From the NCBI GenBank assembly GCA_024229695.1, contig JAAESD010000232.1, positions 35,809 to 99,808 of the forward strand: a stretch of DNA of 64,000 nucleotides, read 5' to 3'. A program made the translations under genes and the position numbers. The stretch is from a bacterium. Its GTDB lineage: Bacteria > Krumholzibacteriota > Krumholzibacteriia > LZORAL124-64-63. Below are positions 1,780 through 45,650 of this stretch, in pieces. Positions within the stretch are counted from its first letter, which is position 1; each line of letters opens with the position of its first letter. Below the pieces are notes generated by a model. It ran no database searches, was not told where the DNA came from, and saw only the letters and a list, made by a program, of their open reading frames with translations.

Positions 1780-1822
1780 TCCCATTCTGTCGTGACACAG
1801 TTTTTTTTTGGAAGGCTACACC

Positions 1823-4996: not shown

Positions 4997-5021
4997 AAAG
5001 CAACTTAAGAGAGGAATAGAG

Positions 5022-5939: not shown

Positions 5940-6689
5940 TTAAACAGGGTCGGAGTCATCTGCGAAATCATGCAGACTGATCCGGCCCTCTTTCCACAGT
6001 CCGTAACTTTCTGATCCTATCCAGCTGCCAAGTGAGACCAGCTTCTTTTTCTGGTTCTCAATTATCATTGGATGATGGATGTGCCCCATAAGCAGGATGT
6101 CCCAGTCGCCTTCAAGGGAAGATAGCTTCTTTTCTGCCTTTCTCTCAATTTCCGGAATTTCATCGCGCGAAGCCTTGCGGCTAGTGCCACTAAGCCACTT
6201 GGAAAAGAGGTAGAGCAGTTCAGGGTGTAGTGATTTGGCCAGGAAAATTCCAAGCCTGGTACGGACAATCTTGCGAAAACCACTGTACAGGAAATCTTTT
6301 CCCAATAAACCATCGCCATGAATTAAGCGAATGACTGTATCACCTAAATGGATGTTTTGTGCCTCTGCAGATTCAGGAGTGCTGTATCTTTTATGGAAAT
6401 AGGCGGCTGCCCAGATGTCGTGATTGCCACCTATGAATCTCAGTTTTGTTCCTGCAGCACAGACTTCATCCAGTTTTTCAAGAATGGAATCATATCCACG
6501 AAGTCTGAAATGAGGGTAATCAAACCAGAAATCGAAAATGTCTCCCAGGAGGATAAGCTCGTCAACTTGCTTACTCATATCTAAAAATTTGAGGAAGTGT
6601 TTGACTTTGATTTCTTCTTTTTTGTCGGGTACCAGATGAAAGTGAGTGTCCCCAACAAAAAGGCACGTTTTAGTTTTTTCATTGTACAT
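5940..6689 (-). CDS. lpxH: UDP-2,3-diacylglucosamine diphosphatase (LpxH)-like calcineurin-type phosphoesterase
   Basis: Metallophosphatase motifs FVGDTHFH, LGDIFDFW and GGNHDIW are in LpxH-like order. The length is 249 aa. Confidence 0.65.
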   Translation of the reverse strand: MYNEKTKTCLFVGDTHFHLVPDKKEEIKVKHFLKFLDMSKQVDELILLGDIFDFWFDYPHFRLRGYDSILEKLDEVCAAGTKLRFIGGNHDIWAAAYFHKRYSTPESAEAQNIHLGDTVIRLIHGDGLLGKDFLYSGFRKIVRTRLGIFLAKSLHPELLYLFSKWLSGTSRKASRDEIPEIERKAEKKLSSLEGDWDILLMGHIHHPMIIENQKKKLVSLGSWIGSESYGLWKEGRISLHDFADDSDPV

Positions 6690-18267: not shown

Positions 18268-19563
18268 ATGAGTTATGGCATACTGGTAGCCATTTTTGCT
18301 TTTTGTATTGCGATGCTGACAGCTGGTCTTCAAGCTGCACTTTATCGTATTGGTGGGTTGCATCGAAATGGGCTTCTGGAAGAAGATCAACTAAACAGTT
18401 CTCTGTTATCCACCACTGAAAATCCCAGGCATTTTATTTTAGCTACAGGTACAATTCATCTCATGGCTTTGAGCTTGATGTCCGTCGCTCTTGTTATGGT
18501 GGGATTACTGCTATGGCCAGAATTGCCGATCTGGCAACTTCTTGTTTACGGAGTAATTGTTGTATCTGTTATTGGAAGTGTTGGGAACGTTTTAGTTAAA
18601 ATGTTTGCCTCAAGATCTGCTGTCGCATATGCAAATGCCTCAGTAAGGATACTCTTCCCGTTCATGATAATATTGAAGCCGTGGACATCCTTGTTACTGA
18701 AAATAACAGGGCCCGATGAAGAAGATTTGTGGGCAGTGGATGCAATGGCACACTTGTCTTCTGGTGAAATCAGGAGCTTGCTAGGTGAGCAGGATAGTGG
18801 CGTAGATCTAGAGGATGAAGAAAAGGAAATGATTCAAAGTATTTTTTCTTTTCATGAAACGACAGTTAAAGAGATAATGATTCCCAGAATCGATGTTATC
18901 GCTCTGAATTCTGAACTTCCCGCAGCTGATGCAATTAAAATTGTAGTTTCTTGCAGACACTCAAGGGTTCCAGTATTTGATGGTAGTATTGACAAGGTAG
19001 TTGGGCTGCTATATTCAAAAGACCTTTTGGCCCTTGTTGAGAATAATAAGTTATCTGTAGATGATACAACCATTTCTGGATTGGTCAGACCAGCATGCTT
19101 TATACCTGAGAGCAAAAAACTTGACGAAGTATTGGAAGAATTCAGAAGCAGTCGTATACATATGGCTGTTGTCGTCGATGAATATGGTGGAACAGCTGGG
19201 CTTGTAACTCTTGAAGATGTTTTAGAGGAAATTGTTGGTGAAATTGAAGATGAATTCGATGAGCAGGAAACGCTCTATGAGTGGTTGGATGAATATTCAA
19301 TGAGGGTTGACCCCAAAATCGATTTGGAAGATTTACGGGATTTGCTGGGTGTCAACTTGCCTGTTGATGGTAGCGAAACACTTGCTGGTCTTGTTTATGA
19401 AGCTGGTGGGAAAGTACCTGAGGTCAAGGACCAGGTCACAATTGCAGAATTGGAAGTTCTAGTGGAAAAAGTTGAGGATCAAAGGATATTACAGGTTAAA
19501 TTGATAGCTTCCAATCCACTACCTGGGTTTAGTCAGCACCAACAGGAGGATGATAATGGCTGA
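18268..19563 (+). CDS. CNNM/CorC/TlyC-family transporter with DUF21 transmembrane, CBS-pair and CorC_HlyC domains
   Basis: An N-terminal transmembrane domain is followed by a CBS pair (IMIPRIDVIALNSE..., RIHMAVVVDEYGGTAGLVTLEDVLEEIVGEIEDE) and then a CorC C-terminal domain. Confidence 0.85.
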   Translation: MSYGILVAIFAFCIAMLTAGLQAALYRIGGLHRNGLLEEDQLNSSLLSTTENPRHFILATGTIHLMALSLMSVALVMVGLLLWPELPIWQLLVYGVIVVSVIGSVGNVLVKMFASRSAVAYANASVRILFPFMIILKPWTSLLLKITGPDEEDLWAVDAMAHLSSGEIRSLLGEQDSGVDLEDEEKEMIQSIFSFHETTVKEIMIPRIDVIALNSELPAADAIKIVVSCRHSRVPVFDGSIDKVVGLLYSKDLLALVENNKLSVDDTTISGLVRPACFIPESKKLDEVLEEFRSSRIHMAVVVDEYGGTAGLVTLEDVLEEIVGEIEDEFDEQETLYEWLDEYSMRVDPKIDLEDLRDLLGVNLPVDGSETLAGLVYEAGGKVPEVKDQVTIAELEVLVEKVEDQRILQVKLIASNPLPGFSQHQQEDDNG

Positions 19564-25846: not shown

Positions 25847-28831
25847 ATGAGAAAACTCACTCTCGTTAGTTTGGCCTTGGTTATTCTTACCGGATCTGCA
25901 CTTGCTTCTATTGGATCTTACGATCTAGCTGACGGCAAATATGAGCAGGTCTTTAATGCAACTCCAATGAATGCATCACGTGCAGACACCGTTTATCTTA
26001 TCGGTGGACCTGACCGTGACGATGGTAAATTCCAAGATGATCTTTCAGGTACACAACCTGAAGATGAAGGTTGGTTTGGTGTAGACCTTACTGCAAAAGT
26101 CCCAACCTGGCATGTTAGTACTTATCGCACAGGTGTAAACACTGCATATTGTGGCGATGAGCTTATTCCTTCTTGTGGCGTCGGCGATCCTATCGGTGGC
26201 TACGCAAACTCTTACTGGGAGCTTCTAGACTGGTCTGGAACTGCTCCTGATCCTTTAGCAGCCACAGTTGTTGACGTTACTGGAACAATCTGGTACGACA
26301 ACGAGCCTGGTTATGACTACACATACTTTGCTGTAGAAGAAACAGGCGGAATGATGGCGTATGGAACATGGAACGGTATTGGCGATGCTGAAGCTATCGC
26401 TGTTAACGTTACTGTTGATCCTGCTAATTATATTGGCCCTGGTCTTGATCAAATCCACGTACAGTTCATCGGTGGTTCTGATAGTGCTTGGTCGGATTCT
26501 GATTGTGATTGGCCAACTCAAGGTCACACAAACCTTGATGACATTGCTGTATCATTTAATGGCACTCAAGTGATTTTCGATGATTTCGAAAGTGGCCTTG
26601 GTGTTAACTGGACAGTTGTTCTACCACCTGCTGTTGGCGACTTTGCTAAAGTATGGCCACGTCTAGGTGACGCTGATGAATGTAAATCAAATGATTCACC
26701 TCAGTTTGCTTTCATCGATGATGGTCTTGTTGTTCCTGGTACCGGTGGTACTCTTGGAGTGGGAGACGCAACTTATGGTCCTGGTGGCTGGGCAGTCAAC
26801 CTTCTTGGTGGACTTGCTGGTCCTGATTACCATCACCAGAATGAAATCTGGTCTCCAGTTTTAGCGTACCCAGTAGGTGCTTATGATGGAGCTCAGTTTG
26901 ATTACGATGTATATCGTCATCAAATTCTTAATAATGGACTTTTCTATGTATGGCATGTTCGTTCTTCAATTGACAACGTCAACTGGACATCATGGCAAGA
27001 TCGTAACTTTGTATACTATGGTGGTCCAGACTACCTGCGTATTGAACAACCAGTTACTGACTTGTTGGAGCCTGGTCGTATGTTCGTTCAGCTTGCTATT
27101 GGTACAAATGAGTTGGGTTACCTCTGGGGCTTTGAAGGCACTGATGCAACTCCAGGTCCTTACTTTGACAATGTCTCTTTCAGAGTTTACGAGTTTGGTG
27201 GTCCTGGTATCTCCACTCGTGAAATTGATATAGCACAAGACAACTTCCCTGCTATTGGTACTATTAACTATGGTGATCTAGCAACTAACGATGTTAGATT
27301 TGACATGGCTAGAAATATTGCCCTTGAAGCGGATATGATTAACCTTCCTGGTGACTCAATTGTCTTTGACATTGTTGCTGTTCGTACAGGTTCAGTTCTT
27401 GCTGGTATTCCAACTCTGAATTACCACATGGACAGAAACCCTCTGTTCGATCCAGTCCGAAACCCTGCATACCCAGCTGTTGATACAGTCGTTGGTGACT
27501 CAATCTTCCTGGACACAGGTGCTTTGATAGCAGATCGTTACAGTTTTGATCTTCCAGATGATGAAGACTTCTTCTTCCCTGGTGATGTAATTCATTATTA
27601 CATTTCTGCTTCAGACGACCTTGGTGGAACATCCACATTGCCATCAGACCTTGATGGTTTTGGTGTTTTCCCAGGTGATCCTCTGTATCAACCATTTATT
27701 TGGAACAGTAGCTATGTTGTTCGCGCTCTTCCTACAATGGAAGATGAGCTTGGCGCTCAGCCTGCCATTCTGTTATGGAATGACTTTGCTGACCGTGGTG
27801 GCGAAAATGAGTGGCAATATGCTCTGAACACTCTTGGTTACCAAGAAGGTGTTGACTATGATTACTACTATACCAATGGTCCTTCCTCTGGTGTAGGTAA
27901 TGGTCTTGGTGGACGTGCAACTCCTTCCACACTTGCTGGTTATGAGACTCTTCTCTATACCTCAGGTAACCTTGGATCATTTACTCTAAGTAATGGTGAC
28001 TATGCTAACGATCCTGGTGATGATATCACTTTGGTTAATGACTGGTTAGAACTAGGTGACAAGAACGTATTGTTCACCGGTGATGATCTGGCAGATGACT
28101 TGATGGCTTCTGGTGCAAACGGAATCTCTTTCGTTAGTACCTGGTTGTCAGTTGACTATCTTGGTGATGACTTACGTCCAGTTATTGGTGGACAGTCTGC
28201 ACCTCTGGTACTGCCAATTGTTGGTAATACTGTTGGCCTGACCACAGAGTTTATTGCATATGGTGGCTGCCCTGTATTCAACGACTTTGACATGGTTTTC
28301 CCAAATGGTACTTGTGAGCGTATTGCTGAATTTGCCGATGCTTCTGGTAACGGTGGAGTTTACAATGGTTATGCTGCAGGTGTTTACAATTGGGATGTAA
28401 CATATACAGCAGATGTAGTCTACTTCCCAGTTGACTTCATGTACTGGTATAACACAGGTGCACCTGGAAACGCTCGTGCAGCTGCTCTAAATGAAATTCT
28501 GTTATTCTTTGGCCATCTTGGTAGTAGCACTCCTACTGGCGTAGTGCCAGGTGCTGGAACCTTTGCAGCCAAGAACTTCCCGAATCCATTTAACCCATCT
28601 ACTAAAATTGAATGGACCATCCCTAGTGCTGGCGATCTTTCAATTAAGGTATACAACGTTCAAGGTGAGCTCGTTAAGACTCTCATGGACGAAGTTGTTT
28701 CAGAAACTTCAGGTGTAAAGACCTGGAATGGTACAAACAACGCTGGTAGCGATGTTGCTTCTGGTATCTACTTCTATGAAGTACGTTCAGGCAGCAATGT
28801 TACTGTTAACAAAATGGCTCTCGTTAAGTAA
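25847..28831 (+). CDS. Large secreted hypothetical protein with a canonical T9SS C-terminal sorting domain
   Basis: A signal peptide (MRKLTLVSLALVILTGSALA) is present. The C-terminus FPNPFNPSTKIEWTIPSAGDLSIKVYNVQGELVKTLMDE...SGIYFYEVRSGSNVTVNKMALVK matches the T9SS sorting-domain pattern. No catalytic motif was recognised. Confidence 0.75.
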   Translation: MRKLTLVSLALVILTGSALASIGSYDLADGKYEQVFNATPMNASRADTVYLIGGPDRDDGKFQDDLSGTQPEDEGWFGVDLTAKVPTWHVSTYRTGVNTAYCGDELIPSCGVGDPIGGYANSYWELLDWSGTAPDPLAATVVDVTGTIWYDNEPGYDYTYFAVEETGGMMAYGTWNGIGDAEAIAVNVTVDPANYIGPGLDQIHVQFIGGSDSAWSDSDCDWPTQGHTNLDDIAVSFNGTQVIFDDFESGLGVNWTVVLPPAVGDFAKVWPRLGDADECKSNDSPQFAFIDDGLVVPGTGGTLGVGDATYGPGGWAVNLLGGLAGPDYHHQNEIWSPVLAYPVGAYDGAQFDYDVYRHQILNNGLFYVWHVRSSIDNVNWTSWQDRNFVYYGGPDYLRIEQPVTDLLEPGRMFVQLAIGTNELGYLWGFEGTDATPGPYFDNVSFRVYEFGGPGISTREIDIAQDNFPAIGTINYGDLATNDVRFDMARNIALEADMINLPGDSIVFDIVAVRTGSVLAGIPTLNYHMDRNPLFDPVRNPAYPAVDTVVGDSIFLDTGALIADRYSFDLPDDEDFFFPGDVIHYYISASDDLGGTSTLPSDLDGFGVFPGDPLYQPFIWNSSYVVRALPTMEDELGAQPAILLWNDFADRGGENEWQYALNTLGYQEGVDYDYYYTNGPSSGVGNGLGGRATPSTLAGYETLLYTSGNLGSFTLSNGDYANDPGDDITLVNDWLELGDKNVLFTGDDLADDLMASGANGISFVSTWLSVDYLGDDLRPVIGGQSAPLVLPIVGNTVGLTTEFIAYGGCPVFNDFDMVFPNGTCERIAEFADASGNGGVYNGYAAGVYNWDVTYTADVVYFPVDFMYWYNTGAPGNARAAALNEILLFFGHLGSSTPTGVVPGAGTFAAKNFPNPFNPSTKIEWTIPSAGDLSIKVYNVQGELVKTLMDEVVSETSGVKTWNGTNNAGSDVASGIYFYEVRSGSNVTVNKMALVK

Positions 28832-28970: not shown

Positions 28971-29101
28971 TCATTGGAAGAAGTATAGTAGTCTTGACCC
29001 TGAAACTTCCAAGTTGATCTTGGTTGGTTTTCGTGACAGCAGTGTGTTTTTTACAATTGAAACCATTGCTGTTTGCGGTGTATGAAAGGCGTACACTGAA
29101 T

Positions 29102-31771
29102 ATGACAATGAGAAAACGCTTGGCTGTGTTTTACCTGGTTCTTTTGGTTTTAATTATCGGGTCCCTAATTGGTTGCCGAGCTTTTAATCCAGAAGTGGTT
29201 ATTGTTAATCGTCCACCTGAGACTTTTATTATTGGTGCACCTAATGAGGAAGCAGGTGGCTATTTCCATTACCATTTATTCTGGTATGGTTCTGATGATG
29301 ACGGGCATGTAGAGCGGTTTGTCTGGGCACTGACTGATAGTACCGTTCAGGACGATGAAACAGATGAAGATGAAGAGGATGCAAGATTCAACCCTGCGCT
29401 TCATATCAATACTTTGGATATAGGCCACTGGACTACCAGAACAGACACTATTTTTGATTTCCAGATTGGGTTGGGATCATTGACGTCGGTTGATAAGACT
29501 TTTCATATTGTTGCTGTTGATGATAGAGGAGACTACGATCGAACGCCAGCGCGATTATATTTCCTGATAAATGCGTTAGGATCTCCGTCTATAACTTTCT
29601 TGACTGAAGAATATGGAATTGAAACTGAGTTGCAAGCGGGAGAGGTTGATACTTTCAGTTATGGCAAGCCATATGCTTTGAGCTGGACGGGAGAGACTCC
29701 TAACATTCGTTCTTTCACTGATGAGTTACTTGCTGAGCGAGATACTGTTTTTTCTATTGACCCTGATACCGGTGAACCTGTTTATGATGGACTGCTTGGC
29801 TTTAAGTATAAAATTTCACTTGCTGATTGTGATGATGCTATCGAGGATTGCTGGAATCCACGCCAGTTTGATGATGCTGTGAATGACAGTGTCAGCTTCT
29901 TTGGTGGAGTGACTCGCGTTGATTTTACAAACGATGGATCAGGTGCAGGGCTTTTCAACAGGGTAATCGCCAGTGGAACTCATACCTTACTTGTAAATTC
30001 AATTGATGTTGCAGGTGTAGAAGTATCAGCTATAGATAGAAGGCAATATTTTGTTGTGAACTATGATCCAGATACACATCTGGTTCTTGAAAGTGACCCT
30101 GCTGCCCTGCAGGATCCATTTGGAAATGATGGTCTGACTTATCCTTATTACACAGTATGGACAGCTGAAGCTACAGGTCTGGTTGAATCTGATCCTGTAT
30201 CCTTTTCCTCAGGGGAGAGACTACCTCATCGGGCAAAGGTTGTTTTTAAGATTCTGGGTTGGGATGATGCAAGAGATCTCAGACTGTTGGATAACCCGGA
30301 CAATCAAGTTGATTCAGGAGTAACTTTTCAATCTAAAATTGAAGGTGTTGCCTTTTTCACTGGCACAACTTCAAGTTACAGATTTAGAACGCAGTACAAT
30401 GATTTGACCTGGACTCCAGACTGGAATGATTATAATACTGTTTCGGCAGACACAATCAGTTTTTTAACAGGTCCTGCCGAGTTTGAATTCAGGGCCCGGT
30501 CAGTTGATGAACACACCCGTCGAGATAACAGCTTCAGCAATATTGAGTTTTCAGCTAACTTTGAGCCATCTATTACCTTTATAGAAACTGTTGTCAACAG
30601 TGAATCCAGTTATCAGATTGGTGATGAGATTCCAAGTGAGCCGGATACTTTGTGGTGCAGCTTTTTTAATGCTCCAAGTCCCTTGCCTGGTGAAGACTGG
30701 AAACATCTGAATTTTGTTACCACTCCTCAAACTTGTTGGGTCAATCCTGTGTCAGGTTCTACTACTTTTCAGGAACCAAATAATTTAGATGGTTTGCTGG
30801 TAATCCCTGGTAACTTCTATGAATATGAACTTTACTTCACTGGTGATGATAATCAGTTGGAGAAACGTTTCAGTGCTGACAGAGCGCCACATCAGGTTAA
30901 TAACAATCCCATTGATCGTGCTCCTTCATGGAGGTTTGAAGTAAGATCTGAACATGATCCTGATAACGTTTTGAATGACGGTGGATTGATTGATAATATT
31001 ACGGCTGTTACCACGGAAGCAGAAAATTGGACACATGTTGATGATAATCCACGTGTTCCAATTGTTATTGATGAAGACGGCGTTTGGCGTGCTCGTATAG
31101 ATGTTTTTGTACCTAATATTCTGGCTGCTACTAGTCCATATTACTTTGCTGGTTATTATTTACCTACATTAACGGATAATCATGGTAATTACCTTGTGCC
31201 AGCACCCTGGATTGCAGATTCAGACGCAAGTGATTGGTCTTATGACCAAGGTCTGCGGCAAATGACAATTTATGCTCCAGAGAGAGAGCAATTCCTTAAC
31301 CGTCAATTGCCTCTGGCTGTTCAAGCAGGAACAGGTTCCGGCGATGATTATGAGCAGATGTATATTTGGGATTTTGAGTCTGTTGTAGATAATGGTGATA
31401 GTGTAGTCCTTACCTCAGCAGTGGATCTTGAAATCGGTCCAGAGGGTCTGGATGGGATGACATTACAGCTCAGAGATGACACTTTTGCTTGGTCGGTTGT
31501 TCCACTTACTACTCCACAGTTGGGCTTGAATACTGTATCTGCGGTAATGCGTGATGCAACTACAATGGATGCCAATCCCAACAGGTGCCGATATGTATAT
31601 TACACAGCTCTTCGAGTACCGGAGTTCCATGGCGATTCTGGATCGGAACCGTATCCAGGTTTTGCTGAAAAACTAAAATTGCATCAATTCTGTCTGGAAA
31701 GTGAATTAGTTGAAAAACAGTTCTACATGTGCTTTGTTGGCAATGACTTTATATATCCACCTAGGCCTTAA
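29102..31771 (+). CDS. Large hypothetical lipoprotein that is a paralogue of the next gene and contains repeated modules with a W-G-D-DG motif
   Basis: A lipoprotein-type signal (MTMRKRLAVFYLVLLVLIIGSLIGC) is present. The segment HYHLFWYGSDDDGHVERFVWAL aligns with SFSWTGIDPDGEIVGYYWKI in the downstream gene. The ORF extends back to 29024 (TTG). Confidence 0.65.
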   Translation: MTMRKRLAVFYLVLLVLIIGSLIGCRAFNPEVVIVNRPPETFIIGAPNEEAGGYFHYHLFWYGSDDDGHVERFVWALTDSTVQDDETDEDEEDARFNPALHINTLDIGHWTTRTDTIFDFQIGLGSLTSVDKTFHIVAVDDRGDYDRTPARLYFLINALGSPSITFLTEEYGIETELQAGEVDTFSYGKPYALSWTGETPNIRSFTDELLAERDTVFSIDPDTGEPVYDGLLGFKYKISLADCDDAIEDCWNPRQFDDAVNDSVSFFGGVTRVDFTNDGSGAGLFNRVIASGTHTLLVNSIDVAGVEVSAIDRRQYFVVNYDPDTHLVLESDPAALQDPFGNDGLTYPYYTVWTAEATGLVESDPVSFSSGERLPHRAKVVFKILGWDDARDLRLLDNPDNQVDSGVTFQSKIEGVAFFTGTTSSYRFRTQYNDLTWTPDWNDYNTVSADTISFLTGPAEFEFRARSVDEHTRRDNSFSNIEFSANFEPSITFIETVVNSESSYQIGDEIPSEPDTLWCSFFNAPSPLPGEDWKHLNFVTTPQTCWVNPVSGSTTFQEPNNLDGLLVIPGNFYEYELYFTGDDNQLEKRFSADRAPHQVNNNPIDRAPSWRFEVRSEHDPDNVLNDGGLIDNITAVTTEAENWTHVDDNPRVPIVIDEDGVWRARIDVFVPNILAATSPYYFAGYYLPTLTDNHGNYLVPAPWIADSDASDWSYDQGLRQMTIYAPEREQFLNRQLPLAVQAGTGSGDDYEQMYIWDFESVVDNGDSVVLTSAVDLEIGPEGLDGMTLQLRDDTFAWSVVPLTTPQLGLNTVSAVMRDATTMDANPNRCRYVYYTALRVPEFHGDSGSEPYPGFAEKLKLHQFCLESELVEKQFYMCFVGNDFIYPPRP

Positions 31772-36736: not shown

Positions 36737-36779
36737 TTCCGAACTCCGGTTGAATTTACGGAGTCTATTGGCTAAATTT

Positions 36780-36812
36780 GAGCCCGGCATTTATGTCGGG
36801 CTCATTTTATTT
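36780..36812 (+). terminator. Probable rho-independent terminator
   Basis: The stem gagcccggcat / atgtcgggctc has one mismatch and is followed by ATTTTATTT. Confidence 0.5.
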
Positions 36813-36882
36813 CAAATAGACGAAAGCGTCTTTTGTCAGTCTAGAAAATGTTATGAACAAGGTCAACAATGGAGGCAACCTC

Positions 36883-39567
36883 ATGGCCGAGAAGCAAGTT
36901 TATTTTTTTGGTAAAGACGAAACTGAAGGTAATGGAAAGCAGAAAGCTCTGTTAGGTGGAAAAGGTGCCAATCTTGCTGAGATGGCCAGCCTGGGTATTC
37001 CTGTTCCTCCGGGTTTCACAATCACAACTGATTACTGTATCAGCTATCTGAAAGATAGAAAAATTTCTGATGACTTGAAAAATGAAGTTGCACAAGCAAT
37101 CTCAAAAGTTGAGAAAGTTATGGGAAAAAAATATGCTGATAAGGATGACCCGCTGTTACTCTCTTGTCGCAGTGGTGCTAAAGTTTCAATGCCTGGCATG
37201 ATGGATACTGTTCTGAACATTGGGCTGAATGATGAAACTGTACTTGGTCTGGTAAAGCAAAGTGGCAATGAAGAATTCGCCTATGACTGTTACCGTCGAT
37301 TAGTCCAAATGTACTGTGATGTTGTGATGGGTGTTGATGGTGAAAAATTTGAAGATGCAATCGATGCATTAAAATCAGATGTTGGCGTAAAGCTTGACTC
37401 TGAATTTAGCGCAGATCATTTGCGAACTCTTATTTCTACATTCAAAAGTATAACAAAAGAAGAATGTGGAATAGAATTCCCGACGGATCCAGTTGAGCAG
37501 CTATGGGGCAGTGTTGAAGCTGTATTTCGTAGTTGGGATACGCCAAGAGCAATTACCTATCGTGAAATGAACAGGTTCCCACATGATATGGGTACTGCTG
37601 TAAACGTTCAGGCAATGGTCTTTGGTAATATGGGTGAAAACTCTGCAACTGGTGTTGCTTTTACAAGGGATCCATCAACTGGTGAAGACTTCTTCTACGG
37701 TGAGTTTCTTGTCAATGCACAGGGCGAAGATGTTGTTGCTGGAACCAGAACGCCACAATCATTGAATAATGATGGCCGGCACAGGCTTCCTGATGGCAGC
37801 CCTGCAAAAGACATGGAAACCCTGGAAGAAATTATGCCGGAAGCATACAAAGAACTTGCAGATATCAGAGATACATTGGAAAAACATTACTCTGAAATGC
37901 AGGATGTAGAGTTCACAATTCAAGATGGCAGACTATGGATGCTCCAGACAAGAACTGGTAAGCGTACCGGTATATCAGCATTGAGAATTGCTGTTGAAAT
38001 GTATAACCAGAAATTGATGACTCTTGATCAGGCTTTAATGTCTGTTGACCCGGAGATGCACCTGGACCAGATGCTTCATGAGCAGATTGATCCGGATGCT
38101 GAGCTTGAAGTATTGGGACTGGGACTTCCTGCTTCACCTGGAGCAGCTTGTGGAGAAATAGTCTTTACTGCTGAAGCTGCTGTTATTGCTGCTGCTGGCA
38201 AAGATGTTGTATTGGTCAGGAAAGAGACAAGCCCTGAAGATATCGATGGCATGAACTCAGCTACTGGTATTCTAACTGCTCGTGGTGGTATGACCAGCCA
38301 TGCTGCTGTTGTTGCTCGTGGCATGGGTAAGCCATGTGTTGCTGGCTGTGGTGAGCTTATTGTGAATTCTGCTGCAGGTACAATGGAAATTGGCGGCAAA
38401 ACTTTCAAGGCTGGCGATGAGATTTCTCTTAACGGTACTAAGGGTCATGTAATTAATGGACTGGCTCCACTTGTAGCGCCAAATCTTGAAGACCATAATC
38501 TCACTACTTTAATGGGCTGGGCTGATGAGATTCGTCGAATGAAAGTTAGAACAAATGCTGATTCACCTGATGATGCTAAGCAAGCAATCAAATTTGGTGC
38601 TCAAGGTATTGGACTAACCAGAACAGAACACATGTTCTTTGGTGATGAACGTATTTCAAAAATGCGTGAAATGATTCTTGCAGAAAATGTTGAAGGCAGG
38701 ATTAAGGCACTAGCTCATATACTGCCAATGCAGCAGGCTGATTTTGAGGGTATTTTCCGCGCAATGAACGGATTCCCTGTAACTATTCGTTTGCTTGATC
38801 CACCACTACATGAATTCCTGCCAACTTCAGATATGACTGAGAAGATTAAGTCATTGGCTGGTGAATTGAATGTTTCTTACGATCATCTTGTACAGCGTAT
38901 TGATGCTCTTCATGAGTCAAATCCTATGCTGGGTCATCGTGGTTGTCGTCTTGGATTGACATATCCTGAGATTTATGAAACTCAAGTTGAAGCAATCATC
39001 AGAGCAGCACTTGTTGTTAAAGGTGAGGGTGTAGACGTTCAGCCGGAAATAATGATACCACTGGTTGGTACTGTGAAGGAACTTGCTAATCTGAGAACGA
39101 TGGCAGTTGAGTTGGCTGATAAGTTGATTAAAGATTCTGGAACCGATCTTTCTTACCTTGTAGGAACAATGATTGAAATTCCAAGAGCCGCTTTGCTTGC
39201 TGATCAAGTTGCAGAGCATGCAGATTTCTTTAGTTTTGGCACTAATGACTTGACCCAGATGACATTTGGATATAGTCGTGACGATACCAAGGATTTTGTT
39301 GATAATTATATCAGAAAAGGCATTCTGCCTTCTGATCCATTCCAGCAGCTGGATCAAACCGGTGTTGGACAGTTAGTTGAAATGGCTTGTCAAAAGGGTC
39401 GCACAACTAATGGCGATATACACCTGGGAATCTGTGGTGAGCATGGTGGAGATCCAAGCTCAGTCGATTTCTGTCATCGTGTAGGATTGGATTATGTAAG
39501 TTGTTCACCGTTCCGTGTTCCAATTGCTCGTTTGGCAGCTGCTCAGGCAGTAATCAGGAATCGGTAG
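36883..39567 (+). CDS. ppdK: Pyruvate, phosphate dikinase
   Basis: An ATP-grasp N-terminus, the phosphohistidine motif GGMTSHAAVVARGMGKPCVAG and a PEP-utilising C-terminal TIM domain are present. The SD sequence ggagg lies before the ATG at 36883; the ORF extends back to 36853. Confidence 0.9.
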   Translation: MAEKQVYFFGKDETEGNGKQKALLGGKGANLAEMASLGIPVPPGFTITTDYCISYLKDRKISDDLKNEVAQAISKVEKVMGKKYADKDDPLLLSCRSGAKVSMPGMMDTVLNIGLNDETVLGLVKQSGNEEFAYDCYRRLVQMYCDVVMGVDGEKFEDAIDALKSDVGVKLDSEFSADHLRTLISTFKSITKEECGIEFPTDPVEQLWGSVEAVFRSWDTPRAITYREMNRFPHDMGTAVNVQAMVFGNMGENSATGVAFTRDPSTGEDFFYGEFLVNAQGEDVVAGTRTPQSLNNDGRHRLPDGSPAKDMETLEEIMPEAYKELADIRDTLEKHYSEMQDVEFTIQDGRLWMLQTRTGKRTGISALRIAVEMYNQKLMTLDQALMSVDPEMHLDQMLHEQIDPDAELEVLGLGLPASPGAACGEIVFTAEAAVIAAAGKDVVLVRKETSPEDIDGMNSATGILTARGGMTSHAAVVARGMGKPCVAGCGELIVNSAAGTMEIGGKTFKAGDEISLNGTKGHVINGLAPLVAPNLEDHNLTTLMGWADEIRRMKVRTNADSPDDAKQAIKFGAQGIGLTRTEHMFFGDERISKMREMILAENVEGRIKALAHILPMQQADFEGIFRAMNGFPVTIRLLDPPLHEFLPTSDMTEKIKSLAGELNVSYDHLVQRIDALHESNPMLGHRGCRLGLTYPEIYETQVEAIIRAALVVKGEGVDVQPEIMIPLVGTVKELANLRTMAVELADKLIKDSGTDLSYLVGTMIEIPRAALLADQVAEHADFFSFGTNDLTQMTFGYSRDDTKDFVDNYIRKGILPSDPFQQLDQTGVGQLVEMACQKGRTTNGDIHLGICGEHGGDPSSVDFCHRVGLDYVSCSPFRVPIARLAAAQAVIRNR

Positions 39568-41634
39568 ATGCAACTGGACTGGCAATTTGCCTCACCCTTG
39601 AGGTTGATGCTTGTTATAGTAATAATGGCGGTGGGCTTAATAGCCCGCCGCCATTATCTGTTTACGGAGCCTTTACCCGGTTTATGGACTCGCAGGTTGT
39701 TGACTTCCATACGTGTAATTGTACTGGGAATCATAATTCTGCTGATTGCTTCGCCATCGATATTAATTACTAAAAATGAAGATATATTGCCGGAGATTGT
39801 AGTTGCTGTTGATAACTCGCTGAGTATGCAGATTGATGATAGTAAACTTGGTTCAAGGTGGGATACGGGTAAGAGATATGCGTCGATGGTTGATTCTCTG
39901 TTGGCAGACAAGCCTGTGGAAATTCACTTATTGAGTGGGAATGGTTTTGGGCAGCTGGGCAGGCTTGACGGACAACCTGAAAGTACTGGCAGTGATCTTG
40001 GACAGATGGTTGTGCAGTCAAGTAGGTACAACAGAAATATCTCTGGTGTGATTCTAGTCAGCGATGGGCATTCAACAGTTTCCAGATCAAATTTACGAAA
40101 TTCGCCGGGAGTGCAGACGGTAATTGTGGGTGTTGGTGATATTACTGGACCACCAGATCTTGTCTTGCACAATGTGAGAGTCCCTGAGATTGCGTACAGT
40201 GGCGAAAAATTAATTATAGAAGCAGATATAAGCGTCAGCGGTATCTCTGATCAGCATTTAGTGAATGTAGTGCTGAGTTGTGAAGATAAAATAGTTGGTT
40301 CTTATGATGGATTGTTGGGCTCTGGTGATATTGTTTTGCATATGGAAATTCCGTTCATTCCAGAATCGACAGGTTTGCAGTTGCTGGATCTGACTTGTGA
40401 GCCACTTGTCAACGAGCGTTTCCAATCGAACAACAAAGTGTCAGTGGCAGTTACCGTGCATCCTGGTAGGTCGAGAGTTTTAATGTTGACTAATAAGCCG
40501 GACTGGGATGCGAAGTTCATGAGTCGGGCTGCTCTGCTCGAGCATCGGTTAGAGTTGTTTGTTGCGTACAAAGCTCCATCCGGTTGGACTCTTTCCGATT
40601 CTCTGACATCGTGGGATTTACCTTCTAAAAAAGAGGATTGGTTGCAGTGGGATGGAGTGATTCTTGGCGACTATCAAGGCTCTGTCAATGGTCTTGAAGA
40701 TGCCGTTGAGGCAGGCTGTGGACTATTGGTATTAGGTGGCAACTCCAGGTTTGATTCATTGGCAGGAGTACGTTCAACTGGTGTTGTGCAAGGGGATTGG
40801 CTGTTGCGTCGAGCTGAGATTGAACAGCAGCATCCACTACTCAATGGGTTGTACGGAGTACCTTTGGATATTAACAGCCACTGGCTGTCACCGATGTCTG
40901 AAGTTGTTGGTTGTGAAACCAGTGGACAGGTACTTCTGGAGGCTGTCTGGAAACAGACTTTGCCGTTGTTGGTTGTTAATGAGAATGGCGCTGGAAGAGT
41001 GGCCTGGTTTGGAAGTAATGAATTGTGGTCGATGCAGTTCTGGCAGCCGGTTTCAGATATAACCAGTCATCCGGTTGTGAAATTGGCTCAGAATATGCTT
41101 GCCTGGGTTGCTGATGGAGATCGATCGGGCAAAATTGTACTTTCAGGTAAGCGCAATGTTTACGACGTGGGGCAGATTGTTCATATTACAGGGGTACTGG
41201 CAGATTCAGACTTAGCAGCTGTGAGTGCTCAACTGAATAATCTTGAATCAGGAAAGACCACAGAATATAGCATGTTTGGGGCAGGGGAAGGTCGGTATGC
41301 ATTGGAATTGCCTCAACTTGAACCTGGTAAGTACTCTGTTTCTGTTGATGGTGCAGAGTTGAATTTTGCGGTCGTTGAGTCTGGAGTTGAGTCTACCCAG
41401 GTTACTCAAAATGTTTCAGCCCTAAAGTCTACTGCAAGCTCTACAGGGGCTGAGTACATCAATGGGGAATCTCAGTTGCTTGTAACTGAATTGCTTGAAC
41501 AGTTCGATTTAAAATCCAGAACTGGTGTCATACGCACAAGGTATAGCCTTGGAAGTAGCTGGTGGTTGGTCGTTGGTATTGTTTTGTTATTGTCTATTGA
41601 ATGGTTTACACGTCGACGATTAGGTATGCTGTAG
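39568..41634 (+). CDS. Membrane protein with an N-terminal pair of transmembrane helices, a VWA-like domain (MIDAS-like motif DNSLS) and a C-terminal transmembrane anchor with an RRR tail (BatA-like)
   Basis: Two N-terminal hydrophobic helices precede VVAVDNSLSMQIDD (DxSxS) and ILVSDGHST. The C-terminus is GSSWWLVVGIVLLLSIEWFTRRRLG. Confidence 0.6.
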   Translation: MQLDWQFASPLRLMLVIVIMAVGLIARRHYLFTEPLPGLWTRRLLTSIRVIVLGIIILLIASPSILITKNEDILPEIVVAVDNSLSMQIDDSKLGSRWDTGKRYASMVDSLLADKPVEIHLLSGNGFGQLGRLDGQPESTGSDLGQMVVQSSRYNRNISGVILVSDGHSTVSRSNLRNSPGVQTVIVGVGDITGPPDLVLHNVRVPEIAYSGEKLIIEADISVSGISDQHLVNVVLSCEDKIVGSYDGLLGSGDIVLHMEIPFIPESTGLQLLDLTCEPLVNERFQSNNKVSVAVTVHPGRSRVLMLTNKPDWDAKFMSRAALLEHRLELFVAYKAPSGWTLSDSLTSWDLPSKKEDWLQWDGVILGDYQGSVNGLEDAVEAGCGLLVLGGNSRFDSLAGVRSTGVVQGDWLLRRAEIEQQHPLLNGLYGVPLDINSHWLSPMSEVVGCETSGQVLLEAVWKQTLPLLVVNENGAGRVAWFGSNELWSMQFWQPVSDITSHPVVKLAQNMLAWVADGDRSGKIVLSGKRNVYDVGQIVHITGVLADSDLAAVSAQLNNLESGKTTEYSMFGAGEGRYALELPQLEPGKYSVSVDGAELNFAVVESGVESTQVTQNVSALKSTASSTGAEYINGESQLLVTELLEQFDLKSRTGVIRTRYSLGSSWWLVVGIVLLLSIEWFTRRRLGML

Positions 41635-41660
41635 TTCCTCCCGGAATGTGATTTTATCAC

Positions 41661-43337
41661 TTGATTCGATCTGTTATTTGTTTCCTCTTGATTGCCAGAG
41701 TTTGCTCAGCAGTTTTGGTGCTGAACGAAGTAATGTATGACCCTGCCGGCGCTGATGCTGGTAAGGAGTTTATCGAATTATATAACAGTGGTTCTGAACC
41801 GCTGTCTCTTCTAGGGGTGCAGGTAGCTTTTGCAAATGGAGCAAATGGGCCAGACTGGCAAACACGATGGGTTGGCAGTGAGCACCATAGTATAGAGGCG
41901 GGTGGATTTTTCCTGATTGCCGATACCGGTTGGGATGGCAATGCCGATGCAATAGCAAACCTGGACCTCCAGAATGGCCCAGATGGAATAATGCTCACTC
42001 GTGAGGGTACTTATCTTGACCTCCTGGGCTATGGACCATTGCAGCATGAGGGGCTTTGTGAAGAGATTCCGCATCCAGGGTCAGGGTCTGGCAAGTCTAT
42101 AGGTAGAAAACCTGATGGTAATGATACCGATGTTAATAGCCTCGACTGGTTCATACTTGAAGAACCAAATCCCGGTTCAGAAAATTTCAGGCAGTTTTCA
42201 ATTGCATCAGTTGATTTGGAGCATTGGCCACCAGTTCTATTAATTGGTTCTGGAACAGTTGTAAGTAAAATCACTCTTTTTAATGATGGCCTTCAGAACA
42301 TTTCATCAACCAATATTCAGATTAATGCCGACGGTGTTGAAGTAGGATCAACATATATTACAGAGATTGAATCCGGTTCTTCTGCAGACGTTTATCTGAC
42401 TTGGTCTATTTCACATGCAGGTTCATATGAAATTGAACTGACATTTTCCAACAGCGAAATATCGGCAATTAATTTGGGCGTATATCAGTCCGGCTTATTG
42501 GGGTTGGTTTTATCTGAAGTGATGGCAGCCCCAGGGGCTGAAAGTTGTGAATGGATAGAGGTAGAAAACTACACTGATGAAGTCATGGATTTATCCGGTT
42601 ATCGAATTAAAGATGCAGACAACGAGTCACAACCAATACCAAATGTCTCAATTTATCCCAATCAGAAAATTATAATCGCTCAGAGTGCTGATGTTTTTAC
42701 GCAATGGTGGTTGAGTGAACAGCAAAATGGAGCGTGGCCAGATTGCAGTATGCCAGTGCTTGTTGAATTGGATGGGAGCTGGCCGACCATTAATAATTCT
42801 GCGCCGGATGATCGTAACTACGCTGATTATATCTGCCTGATGCTCCCTGAAAGAGTTGTAATAGACTGGTTGCATTTAGGGGATAGTTGGCCCATCCCTG
42901 CAGCTCGTTCTGTTGAGCGAGTTAATAGAGAACCGATTGGTGACCCAAGTTGGAACTGGCGACCATCTACTGCAACAGCACGCTCAACTCCTGGATGTTC
43001 GAATAGTGTAAGTGGTGGACCGGTTGTCCACTCAGCTGTAATTGCGAAACCAAATCCGGTCACAGATGGCGTACAGCACATATCGTTTTTTGTGAGTCCT
43101 CCAGCTACTGGATGGCAGGCGAGAATTTTTAATTTATCAGGCAAGTGTGTCAGGGAACTTGGTGGGGATCAACTTGGTGAAGGGCCCCGAGATATTTTCT
43201 GGCAAGGAAATGATGATAGTGGCAAACAGTTGTCGTCGGGAGGATATATCCTGCTTGTACAGCAGGTCAATGATTCGAATGAATTGCTTTGGTCTGACAA
43301 GCTTTTGCTGGCAATCGATTATGGCGCAATACGATGA
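41661..43337 (+). CDS. Tandem lamin-tail-domain (LTD) protein with a T9SS C-terminal sorting domain
   Basis: Two LTD-like segments are present: LVLNEVMYDPAGADAGKEFIELYNSGSEPLSLLGVQV and LVLSEVMAAPGAESCEWIEVENYTDEVMDLSGYRIKD. The C-terminus AKPNPVTDGVQHISFFV...ARIFNLSGKCVREL...GGYILLVQQ is sorting-domain-like. Confidence 0.7.
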   Translation: MIRSVICFLLIARVCSAVLVLNEVMYDPAGADAGKEFIELYNSGSEPLSLLGVQVAFANGANGPDWQTRWVGSEHHSIEAGGFFLIADTGWDGNADAIANLDLQNGPDGIMLTREGTYLDLLGYGPLQHEGLCEEIPHPGSGSGKSIGRKPDGNDTDVNSLDWFILEEPNPGSENFRQFSIASVDLEHWPPVLLIGSGTVVSKITLFNDGLQNISSTNIQINADGVEVGSTYITEIESGSSADVYLTWSISHAGSYEIELTFSNSEISAINLGVYQSGLLGLVLSEVMAAPGAESCEWIEVENYTDEVMDLSGYRIKDADNESQPIPNVSIYPNQKIIIAQSADVFTQWWLSEQQNGAWPDCSMPVLVELDGSWPTINNSAPDDRNYADYICLMLPERVVIDWLHLGDSWPIPAARSVERVNREPIGDPSWNWRPSTATARSTPGCSNSVSGGPVVHSAVIAKPNPVTDGVQHISFFVSPPATGWQARIFNLSGKCVRELGGDQLGEGPRDIFWQGNDDSGKQLSSGGYILLVQQVNDSNELLWSDKLLLAIDYGAIR

Positions 43338-44056
43338 AGGTATGGTTGTTTGTTCTGTTGGCTGTACTTGTTGGGAATGCATCTGCTGGTTTCAGAGATG
43401 CTGATCAGGGGTGGGTTATTCCTCCCGACGATTGTAGAGAGAGAAACACAGGATATTTCGGCGCAGTTTCAGTGAGTTCATTATATCAAATGCCAGAACT
43501 GCCAATGCAGTCAGTCCTGTCGGGTTGGTCTTCAGAGAAATGGCATATGGCATTCAGGTGGCACAAACTGGGAGGTGATGTATACAGAGAAGATTCGTTG
43601 TCAGTGGATATGCTGTTTGGTGGAAGTTTAAAATTTGGAATCAAAGTGGAACACGAATCGCAGCAGTTTTCAGATGTTCCAGGATGGAACACTTTATACA
43701 GTTTTGTTACTCGGTATGATTATCGTGAATCAATAACTTTAAAATCTACCACTCCGATTTCAGGGGCAATGCTTGCGACCAGAGATTATGAGCAACTATT
43801 GATGATTATACGAAGCGAGGATGTTTTATTCGCTCTGGGGATAGATGATACCAATTCTGGTGAAAAAAGTGTTAGACTTGGGCTTGATTGGTTGCTTCAT
43901 CACATGTTCCGGGTCGGAGCAATAGTTGATACAAGCTCAAGCTCTACTGGATTGACCACATCAATTAAAATCGGCAAAATTCTAACTAGAAGTTCTCATC
44001 TGGCACATCCCGAGCTTGGAATGACGCACAGGTGGCAGCTGATTATTTCAAGATGA
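43334..44056 (+). CDS. Secreted hypothetical protein (240 aa)
   Basis: A signal peptide (MKVWLFVLLAVLVGNASA) is present. The ATGA overlap with the upstream gene suggests translational coupling. Confidence 0.5.
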   Translation: MKVWLFVLLAVLVGNASAGFRDADQGWVIPPDDCRERNTGYFGAVSVSSLYQMPELPMQSVLSGWSSEKWHMAFRWHKLGGDVYREDSLSVDMLFGGSLKFGIKVEHESQQFSDVPGWNTLYSFVTRYDYRESITLKSTTPISGAMLATRDYEQLLMIIRSEDVLFALGIDDTNSGEKSVRLGLDWLLHHMFRVGAIVDTSSSSTGLTTSIKIGKILTRSSHLAHPELGMTHRWQLIISR

Positions 44057-45543
44057 TTGTTATAACAGTTTTATGCTTGTTGTGTTTCATCTCTTCAGTA
44101 TTTGCACAGGAATCTGACGAGATTGAAATGATGGTAGAGGATGGTCTGATTTCTTCGGAACAAGTAGAGGACTTGTGGTTCCAGGAGATTGATGCAAGTG
44201 CAAAATCAAATTTGTATATTAAAGCAGAACAGTTAACTGTCAGGTCATTTGGTTCAATCTATTCAGTTAGCGGCGGTCTGTATTTCAGGCAAAAATATCA
44301 GGAGCACGTTGCCAGGAGTGGCTTTGTGGCTGCTGGATTTACTGGGCTTGAACTTATAGTTGGTAAGGTGATTGCGGAGTCTGGGATGGGGTTGCTGATA
44401 GCTGATCCAGGACGCTGGCGTTCCATGAGTGCCACTTCACCTCTGGGGAAATCTGAAAAACATATCAGGGGATCCACTTCAACATCAACTCAATCAGAGT
44501 CTGATTCCTACAGCCTTGGATATCATACAAGATGGCTCAGGGGAGCAGTCATAGTTGAAGCTGATAACCTGAAAAATATATGCGGATATGTATCGACTGC
44601 TTTTGGGCCAGTCCGCTCAACTGTTACAATTTCAAAACGCAATGGCGGGCAGGGAGCTTCGGTCTTTGGAAGTATCGATTCCCCCAGTTTTACTGTTCAA
44701 TCGGAAATCGCCAGTTTCAGGCGAGGTTTATACGCGGTGTCATATGCACATTCTTCTCTATTTTCATATTCAGGGAAAAAGGGGAAACTGGAAATGTTAG
44801 CAGCAGTTAGTGAACCTGGATTTCAGTTTGATAATGGCAGAGTGCCGGTGGTTTTGCCTAGCACTGGTGGCTCCGGTTTGGCGTTGAGATGGTTCTATAA
44901 ATGCAGCTCTGATGTGAATCTTTCATCGCTGTTTGCTAGTTCCCGATCGAGGTATTTGACCGATACAGGTTATGCTGTTGCCAGAAGAACAAAAATACAA
45001 ACCGGAATCAGTTTGAAACTTGATAATGATCTCAACACAGGTGGCATGGTAGTAATAGATTATTATGGCAAGTCGGGTTGGCATAGTATTGCACAGTGGC
45101 TCCCTTATTCAAAAGAATCGGAGAATTTGCAAGTACGTTTCAGCAGTTGGGCTCAGAAATATTGGAACGATTACAGGATGAAACTTGCTGTTAAATATAC
45201 AGTTAAGGAGAATAAGTATTATTTGAATGACGAAGTTATTCCGATGGAATCAAGGATATTGTTTAATATCAGAGTAGATAAACAATCGGATAGTGGATTT
45301 GGAATAAAATTTGAGTATGGACACGCATGGGGTGACCAATTGGATATCGTGACTGTGTCAGTTCCAAGTGCAGGGCAGATGCGATCATTCCATTGGTCCA
45401 GGCGTAATGATTTATGGTTGGTCAGTCTCAATCACAAAAGTAAATCTGGAATTATTTCACTGACATTCGACAAGAGCAAAGTAGAGCCATACGGATTGCG
45501 CGATTATTCTGCTCAATTGTACTGGCAGAAAAACTGGAGATGA
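44053..45543 (+). CDS. Secreted hypothetical protein, possibly an outer-membrane beta-barrel
   Basis: A signal peptide (MIVITVLCLLCFISSVFAQE) is present. The sequence shows an alternating hydrophobic pattern and a Tyr/Trp-rich C-terminal region. The start overlaps the upstream stop. Confidence 0.5.
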   Translation: MIVITVLCLLCFISSVFAQESDEIEMMVEDGLISSEQVEDLWFQEIDASAKSNLYIKAEQLTVRSFGSIYSVSGGLYFRQKYQEHVARSGFVAAGFTGLELIVGKVIAESGMGLLIADPGRWRSMSATSPLGKSEKHIRGSTSTSTQSESDSYSLGYHTRWLRGAVIVEADNLKNICGYVSTAFGPVRSTVTISKRNGGQGASVFGSIDSPSFTVQSEIASFRRGLYAVSYAHSSLFSYSGKKGKLEMLAAVSEPGFQFDNGRVPVVLPSTGGSGLALRWFYKCSSDVNLSSLFASSRSRYLTDTGYAVARRTKIQTGISLKLDNDLNTGGMVVIDYYGKSGWHSIAQWLPYSKESENLQVRFSSWAQKYWNDYRMKLAVKYTVKENKYYLNDEVIPMESRILFNIRVDKQSDSGFGIKFEYGHAWGDQLDIVTVSVPSAGQMRSFHWSRRNDLWLVSLNHKSKSGIISLTFDKSKVEPYGLRDYSAQLYWQKNWR

Positions 45544-45650
45544 CGGCTTTGACTTCCGGTAGTAATTCAGGTAGTTTTGAGCTCTCAAGTAATCACAAAC
45601 AGTTCAAGCCATAGCCAGAATGAATATGGTATAAATAGAGGAGACAGTTG

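Follow-up and report, generated by a model that had tools for sequence, protein, structure and literature searches.

How type IX secretion system (T9SS) cargo proteins are sorted to their final place is an active question, which to our knowledge has been studied only in Bacteroidota, with the PorV and PorP/SprF barrels. PorV and PorP-like proteins, both FadL-family barrels with 14 strands, bind cargo whose C-terminal domain (CTD) is of type A or type B, and porP-like genes adjoin the genes of their cargo (PMC9143113). In Flavobacterium johnsoniae, cognate PorP/SprF shuttles are required for the linked substrates (PMC12618676). Here we analyzed a 64,000-nt stretch from the genome of an uncultured marine bacterium of the Krumholzibacteriota lineage (GenBank assembly GCA_024229695.1, contig JAAESD010000232.1, positions 35,809 to 99,808; hereafter the window, whose numbering is used throughout). 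Four open reading frames (ORFs) in 39568-45543, all on the plus strand and termed g1 to g4, encode a predicted inner-membrane protein with a von Willebrand factor A (VWA) domain, a secreted protein with lamin-tail domains (LTDs) and two predicted outer-membrane barrels. We tentatively propose that they form a dedicated docking station, in which the cargo g2 comes with its own PorV/PorP-like docking barrels, a reading that we hold to be quite possible, if somewhat short of an even chance. The four genes are:

39568-41634 (+): g1, 688 aa; predicted inner-membrane protein with helices at both ends
41661-43337 (+): g2, 558 aa, TTG start; secreted LTD/CARDB protein
43334-44056 (+): g3, 240 aa; signal peptide and a compact outer-membrane beta-barrel, modelled with 14 strands
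44053-45543 (+): g4, 496 aa, ATG start; signal peptide and a large outer-membrane beta-barrel, as modelled

An initial annotation of this stretch had reported these four ORFs together with two ATGA overlaps, the signal peptides and a DNSLS motif in g1, and each of these features lies where it had been placed. By direct reading of the sequence, the stop of g2 and the start of g3 overlap at 43334-43337, and the stop of g3 and the start of g4 at 44053-44056. The ORF listing extends g4 upstream to a GTG at 44032; the 496-aa NCBI product (P0036) is 100% identical to the ATG version.

In the proposed docking station, g2 would be exported by Sec and then cross the outer membrane via the T9SS of the organism. 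g3, as a 14-strand shuttle or anchor specific to this cargo, would receive g2 and hold it at the surface, and g4 would be the larger partner of g3 or its platform. g1 would come from the same transcript and span the periplasm; its metal-ion-dependent adhesion site (MIDAS) would bind a periplasmic part of the outer-membrane assembly and thereby tie this assembly to the inner membrane. A constant ratio of g2, g3 and g4 would be ensured by the 4-nt overlaps. This reading is supported by the anatomy of the four proteins, the presence of T9SS parts, the likeness of the g2 CTD to type A domains, a gene order and overlaps that are kept despite sequence divergence, and a precedent within the window itself, where the gene of a type A-like cargo (1808-4996) is overlapped by a PorV/PorQ-family barrel gene (4986-5936).

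We compared the locus with SprB-SprF, PG1035-PorP, other PorP/SprF-like pairs, PorV, and the pair of an M6-like inactive protease and PorV2 (NF052323/NF052325). As in these T9SS cargo/barrel pairs, the gene of a Sec/CTD surface protein (g2) is followed by that of a 14-strand FadL-class barrel (g3). In contrast to PorV/PorQ and PorP/SprF, to which it has no detectable sequence relationship, g3 is much more compact with its 240 aa and carries an invariant SHLxHPxLGxTHR hairpin of its own. Moreover, the CTD of g2 looks like type A and not type B, unlike the cargo of PorP/SprF pairs, and the g1-g4 string includes a second barrel of ~25 strands as well as an inner-membrane VWA protein, neither of which occurs in the known pairs. 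If the proposal is true, a distant phylum of the Fibrobacteres-Chlorobi-Bacteroidetes (FCB) group would use a barrel of the same class but of unrelated sequence, plus a large barrel and an inner-membrane VWA protein, and cargo docking would be known in a wider variety of forms. The two lineage-wide families of g3 and g4, which had no function attached to them, gain a structural assignment from confident models, and one member of a widespread, functionless GATase1-like/Bat-like membrane family now stands in a context that suggests a partner.

The AlphaFold2 model of g3, built from a 27-sequence alignment, has a pLDDT of 88.3 and a pTM of 0.83 and consists of 14 antiparallel strands after a short N-terminal segment; its top structural match is the fatty-acid channel FadL. 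This model puts g3 into the FadL/PorV structural class of outer-membrane barrels. The initial annotation had listed it as having no recognisable domains, which holds for known families, although the protein is itself a barrel: g3 and four orthologues matched no Pfam or NCBIfam model (E<=1-10), including NF033709, PF11751 and TIGR03519. An hhalign comparison of g3 with the PorV/PorQ-family protein of the window (4986-5936) gave a probability of 0.3%. Thus, hhalign lends no support to g3 as a diverged PorV, nor does it support g3 and g4 as paralogues. Alignments of the orthologues revealed one invariant element:

43991-44031 (+): g3 motif (S/T)-S-H-L-x-H-P-x-L-G-x-T-H-R, in the last beta-hairpin (strands 13-14)

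The mature N-terminus of g3 carries a conserved G-x-R-D-x-x-D-x-W, and hydropathy indicates signal-like N-terminal segments in both g3 and g4. Many outer-membrane barrels end in Trp; a C-terminal Trp is found in 14 of 31 g3 orthologues and in 20 of 28 g4 orthologues, and in g4 of the window Trp is the second-to-last residue.

For g4, which the initial annotation gave as 497 aa and suspected to be barrel-like, the model bears out this suspicion: AlphaFold2 (108-sequence alignment; pLDDT 86.6, pTM 0.84) predicts a large outer-membrane barrel of ~25 strands. A non-strand insert of 47 residues (aa 105-151) follows the fifth strand and contains GxGLLxAxPGR, the most conserved motif of the g4 family. 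The structural matches are large barrels, namely FhuA (17.3), FimD (17.1), PapC (16.5) and MtrB (15.1), and they reflect the generic barrel only, since all Foldseek TM-scores are below 0.5. In the models g4 resembles TonB-dependent receptors, the ushers FimD/PapC, LptD and MtrB in its size (22-26 strands), its early non-strand insert and its signal peptide. In contrast to these plugged barrels, it has no Plug, TonB-box, usher, LptD or POTRA domain, and its family comprises ~170 representatives from one lineage. Searches of g4 and three orthologues matched no Pfam or NCBIfam family, with no usher, LptD, Omp85, TonB-receptor, POTRA or Plug among the hits. An exhaustive profile search among 1.84 billion representative proteins returned 170 proteins at E<=0.001, all from this lineage; those that look full-length have ~480-620 aa, and shorter entries align partially and look truncated. 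Homologue searches with g4 or with a concatenated g3+g4 alignment yielded only relatives of 78-100% identity. Judged by sequence, g3 and g4 each represent a new family that is restricted to this lineage; neither matches a known, unrelated family, an outcome that the initial annotation had named as speaking against its reading.

The cargo candidate g2 consists of a signal peptide, an LTD at aa 18-125, a CARDB domain at aa 203-261, a second LTD from ~aa 281 and a C-terminal immunoglobulin (Ig)-like domain. In Pfam searches the two LTD stretches (PF00932) scored 90.5 bits (cut-off 34.3), CARDB 31.8 bits and FlgD_ig 28.2 against a cut-off of 27 bits. The tandem LTDs of the initial annotation are thereby borne out, and the CARDB domain between them had gone unmentioned. 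A signal-like N-terminus is seen in the hydropathy profile only if g2 starts at the TTG at 41661. Gene callers in sister genomes begin 19-24 codons later (534 or 539 aa instead of 558), and orthologue alignments reach into the segment in question (41661-41735). The C-terminal part is:

43065-43325 (+): CTD of g2, aa 469-555, matched by FlgD_ig and similar to T9SS type A sorting domains

The sorting domain ascribed to g2 in the initial annotation could be linked to a genuine type A domain by profile comparison, but the standard model TIGR04183 is not reached. Neither TIGR04183 nor PF18962 matched g2 or its 12 scanned orthologues (13 sequences), and the C-terminus of g2 has weak matches (E ~1e-4) to the C-terminal regions of the models for PorU and the T9SS-dependent M6-like protein. 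A profile of the 13 g2-orthologue CTDs matches the CTD of the window protein 25847-28831 (E 2.2e-6), which passes both PF18962 and TIGR04183, and blastp aligned the CTDs of g2 and up1 with 36% identity (E 1e-4). The tail of g2 shows the usual PNP...IFNxxG...W.G.D..G...SG.Y pattern. With regard to the secretion system, the product of the window gene 4986-5936 scores 158.9 bits with the curated PorV/PorQ model, whose cut-off is 90 bits, and several neighbouring proteins carry Por_Secre_tail domains. The T9SS core genes porK, L, M, N and sov are not in the window, and no search was aimed at them. Based on the CTD-profile match, the tail pattern and the T9SS parts of the organism, g2 is a probable type A cargo.

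The inner-membrane component g1 has the following predicted features:

39586-39771 (+): N-terminal helix pair (aa 7-25 and 50-68) with an Arg-rich loop between, by hydropathy
39781-40167 (+): VWA domain, ~aa 72-200, from the orthologue profile; domain ends approximate
40636-41112 (+): GATase1-like domain (class I glutamine-amidotransferase fold), ~aa 357-515, from the orthologue profile against 3rht
41542-41598 (+): C-terminal transmembrane helix, aa 659-677, by hydropathy; a conserved EW-x-x-RRR-x-G-x-L tail follows

Hydropathy thus reproduces the two-helix N-terminal anchor and the C-terminal transmembrane segment with RRR tail (RRRLGML) that the initial annotation gave for this 688-aa protein. 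The DNSLS motif lies at aa 82-86, and the MIDAS-type residues are D82-x-S84-x-S86, S142 (T in most orthologues) and D166. Across 28 g1-family members S84, S86, D166 and G167 are invariant; at the first MIDAS position the clade of the window has Asp and most orthologues have Glu. The VWA domain with its MIDAS-like motif could be recognized in the orthologue profile but not in the single sequence: g1 alone matched no Pfam or NCBIfam model, and TIGR02226 and VWA, which the initial annotation had suggested as checks, fail even at E<=10, as does BatA (PF07584). In contrast, a profile built from Krumholzibacteriota-type orthologues only and compared with solved structures matches the VWA domains of BatB (3ibs; E 1.1e-5, positions 71-210) and BatA (4jdu; E 5.5e-5, positions 72-210) as well as the GATase1-like protein 3rht (E 2.6e-10, profile positions 374-556). 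Two Ig domains, one CARDB-like and one filamin/MG2-like, emerge from a wider g1-family profile, so that what had been described as a large periplasmic region resolves into CARDB-like Ig, GATase1-like and filamin/MG2-like Ig domains. PF07090 is matched by 9 of the 28 aligned family members and not by g1 of the window. The nucleophile position of the GATase1-like domain is Cys only in the clade of the window and Leu in most orthologues; because this position is not conserved, the domain is probably structural.

We infer that g1 is an inner-membrane protein with three helices and a body of VWA, CARDB-like Ig, GATase1-like and Ig domains, predicted to be periplasmic: by the positive-inside rule the Arg-rich loop is assigned to the cytoplasm, and loop and RRR tail together put the large body on the periplasmic side. 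For BB0173, a Borrelia protein with a BatA domain, experiments have shown the same layout of three helices and a periplasmic VWA/MIDAS domain (PMC5700661). Compared with BatA and BatB (Bacteroides Bat operon, BB0173, 4jdu, 3ibs), g1 shares the two N-terminal helices, a VWA domain with DxSxS...T/S...D that is predicted to be periplasmic, and the C-terminal helix. In contrast to them it is twice as long, contains Ig and GATase1-like domains, does not match PF07584 or TIGR02226, has Glu for the first Asp of the MIDAS in most orthologues, and has no MoxR, DUF58, BatB-E or TPR partner nearby; a MoxR/DUF58 partner was found neither among the scanned window genes nor in loci L001-L007.

Homologue searches with g1 returned same-species relatives (88-91% identity), one of 62%, and a group of 29-35% in Krumholzibacteriota metagenome-assembled genomes (MAGs), followed by distant full-length relatives (E 1e-20 to 1e-5), some of which carry PF07090 GATase1_like, VWA or DUF7408. 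Among these are the PF07090/DUF7408 proteins that close DUF4159-MoxR-DUF58-BatA operons (e.g., locus L058 of Acidobacteria). They align with g1 over the full length (E 1e-20 to 1e-9), are equally long and share the order VWA, Ig, GATase1-like (solved structures 3rht, 2gk3 and 3soz), Ig, C-terminal helix and EW..RRR tail. Unlike these proteins, g1 stays below every Pfam threshold and is flanked by ppdK upstream and by the LTD cargo and two barrels downstream, with no MoxR, DUF58 or BatA. To judge from these alignments, "BatA-like VWA membrane protein", the name given in the initial annotation, is fair for the topology and architecture, but the nearer relatives are PF07090-type proteins and not BatA itself.

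Conservation of the locus was surveyed with a back-translated DNA pattern of the g3 motif, scanned over one genome per species. The pattern has one match in the window (0 expected) and 47 in the species collection, where ~1 chance match is estimated from base frequencies; 45 of the 47 are real loci, and the matches in Puniceispirillum and an alphaproteobacterium are due to chance. The real loci are labelled Krumholzibacteriia/Krumholzibacteriota, "bacterium", "uncultured Fibrobacteraceae", and in one case each Latescibacterota and "Gemmatimonas sp." These inconsistent labels on genomes that share the locus suggest mislabelled MAGs, and the g3 pattern serves as a lineage marker. As far as the stored 8-kb blocks extend, the genes of all 45 species-level loci follow the unbroken order ppdK-g1-g2-g3-g4 (ppdK encoding pyruvate, phosphate dikinase); the loci come from Krumholzibacteriota and related uncultured FCB bacteria. 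The linkage proposed in the initial annotation was found in every relative examined; inside the lineage the genes are not distributed independently. The junctions are:

ppdK-g1: gap of 0-15 nt in 20 of 21 loci; 141 nt in L019, the exception
g1-g2: gap of 26-91 nt across species
g2-g3: overlap of 4 nt in 26 of 32 species and of 1 nt in a further 5
g3-g4: 4-nt overlap in 34 of 39 species

Within this fixed arrangement g3 and g4 have diverged strongly while PpdK has not, as seen from the identities between the window and loci L005-L007:

PpdK: 68-70%
ArcC and PurD: 55-60%
g2: 33-37%
g1: 29-31%
g3: 23-26%
g4: ~23%

The positional orthologues of the two barrels are true, strongly diverged homologues (22-29% identity for g3 and ~23% for g4), and each barrel gene occurs once per genome and seems to be universal in the lineage. 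Insertions and deletions (indels) fall just downstream of g4 and never inside the g1-g4 block. In most species two extra genes, x5 (484-560 aa) and an aminotransferase gene, lie between g4 and arcC:

L005 16643-19570, L006 16016-18736, L007 16608-19633: region of x5 and the aminotransferase gene; absent at window 45544-45647

Both genes are lacking in the window and in L049, and five other species lack x5 only. x5 matches no family and has a very conserved C-terminal stretch of ~110 residues. As a candidate fifth member of the module it was rejected because it appears to be helical, is not found in the window, shows much stronger conservation and lacks a signal peptide.

Several observations weigh against a dedicated docking station. 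The type A cargo known so far is served by the general PorV, with no need for a barrel of its own, and a barrel of ~25 strands such as g4 has no counterpart in the described T9SS shuttle and anchor systems. g1 is spaced closer to ppdK than to g2, and its distant relatives in Acidobacteria, Flavobacterium and one metagenome contig have no g2-g4 beside them and occur in MoxR-DUF58-BatA operons or in unrelated contexts, so that the association of g1 with g2-g4 is specific to this lineage. Furthermore, ppdK, arcC, purD, purE and sua5 are as syntenic as g1-g4 in the same genomes, and three large surface-protein genes upstream are equally syntenic; gene order alone therefore cannot prove a shared function, and the "functional surface module" of the initial annotation, although plausible, does not follow from synteny. 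This shared synteny, which runs from the upstream surface proteins through ppdK to arcC, purD, purE and sua5, would also be expected if unrelated envelope proteins without a joint function were neighbours through frozen gene order, with g1 in a Bat-like stress or scaffold role, g2 as an adhesin, g3 as a small FadL-like channel and g4 as a large porin or uptake channel. The g1 relatives of other phyla that lack the other three genes, FadL as the top match of g3 and the resemblance of g4 to uptake receptors fit such a view, under which the result would be ordinary. What discriminates is that indels occur outside the block only and that the overlaps persist: start/stop overlaps are kept at both junctions in ~90% of species despite ~23% protein identity, and overlap-coupled genes usually encode subunits or pathway partners. 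In addition, g3 and g4 are found only in this context among the 1.84 billion representative proteins. We thus regard frozen gene order as a rather unlikely explanation.

The T9SS itself might also be dispensable, if g4 were a plugged conduit for g2 in the manner of an usher, LptD or MtrB, with g3 as an accessory barrel and g1 as the periplasm-spanning inner-membrane partner of a self-contained export and display route. An usher plug is inserted between early strands, which the conserved 47-residue insert after strand 5 of g4 recalls; TIGR04183 is not matched by g2, and all four genes are confined to the lineage and travel together. However, g4 belongs to no usher, LptD, Omp85 or TonB-receptor family by sequence, its Foldseek TM-scores (<0.5 to everything) leave a generic barrel match only, no chaperone-like or energy-supplying component is present, and the CTD of g2 resembles the type A sorting domains of the same genome, in which a T9SS is present, all of which makes a separate route unlikely. 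General outer-membrane machinery, i.e., g3 and g4 as PorQ/PorP-type attachment proteins or as BamG-like barrels of the beta-barrel assembly machinery (BAM) with g2 merely adjacent, appears improbable. Single g3 and g4 genes per genome, seemingly throughout the lineage, would suit it, and the invariant His-rich last hairpin of g3 suggests a conserved interface and not co-evolution with a fast-changing cargo. Yet identities of 23-26% for g3/g4, compared with 55-70% in the housekeeping neighbours, are unusual for core machinery, both genes are always translationally coupled to g2, and a recognizable PorV/PorQ-family protein is encoded elsewhere in the genome. Improbable as well, in our view, is a new envelope-spanning assembly of Krumholzibacteriota in which the two new barrel families and the MIDAS-bearing inner-membrane protein would jointly export or mount the LTD protein by a route other than simple T9SS shuttling, with expression linked through translation to that of PpdK, an enzyme of central metabolism.

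The genes upstream of g1 bear on the extent of the transcription unit:

36779-36804 (+): terminator-like hairpin, 11-bp stem with 7 G-C pairs and a T-rich tail, from a consensus scan only
36853-39567 (+): ppdK, pyruvate, phosphate dikinase, 904 aa; TIGR01828, 1314 bits

The TAG stop of ppdK (39565-39567) directly abuts the ATG of g1 (TAGATG). The hairpin sits between the PorZ-like gene upstream and ppdK and is the probable 5' boundary of the unit, and the consensus scan called no terminator-like site between g4 and the next gene. Given the abutting stop, the hairpin before ppdK and the lack of a called site after g4, the transcription unit is most likely ppdK-g1-g2-g3-g4 with ppdK as its first gene. 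Thus, the unit very probably begins at ppdK and not at g1, the first gene of the initial annotation. A scan for sigma-70 promoters was uninformative, as it found fewer sites than in shuffled sequence. g1 shares the reading frame of ppdK in 17 of 21 loci, separated from it by one stop codon (mostly TAG) and 0-5 codons, an arrangement that may reflect plain termination-reinitiation coupling. The single in-frame stop also suggested a PpdK-g1 read-through fusion, which is unlikely since it would invert the predicted topology of g1.

Further surface-protein genes lie upstream of ppdK. Three encode large secreted proteins, in an order that is conserved in the lineage:

29024-31771 (+): large secreted protein, 915 aa
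31801-34326 (+): large secreted protein, 841 aa
34394-36736 (+): large secreted protein, 780 aa

An N-terminal region is common to the 915-aa and 841-aa proteins. The 780-aa protein is as long as PorZ and shows BNR/sortilin-type propeller matches as well as a CTD most like that of PorZ (E 5.7e-11), which stays far below the PorZ cut-off. Near the start of the window, the product of 1808-4996 (+), 1062 aa long, is an M6-like inactive metalloprotease that scores 206 bits with NF052323, short of the equivalog cut-off, and has a borderline type A sorting-domain match (TIGR04183, 22.9 against a cut-off of 23 bits); its gene is overlapped by 11 nt by that of the 316-aa PorV/PorQ-family barrel (4986-5936, +; NF033709). 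Beside ybeY and mgtE, 18268-19563 (+) encodes a GldE-like protein of the CNNM/CorC family (TIGR03520, 251 bits; cut-off 376), which is possibly related to gliding and T9SS or simply an Mg/Co transporter.

GC skew is positive in every 2-kb bin of the window, and only 7 of the 51 ORFs of at least 140 aa are on the minus strand. Six of these seven lie inside longer plus-strand ORFs, the exception being the LpxH-like 5940-6689. The uniform GC skew and the strand bias indicate that the window lies on one replichore, with its genes co-oriented with replication.

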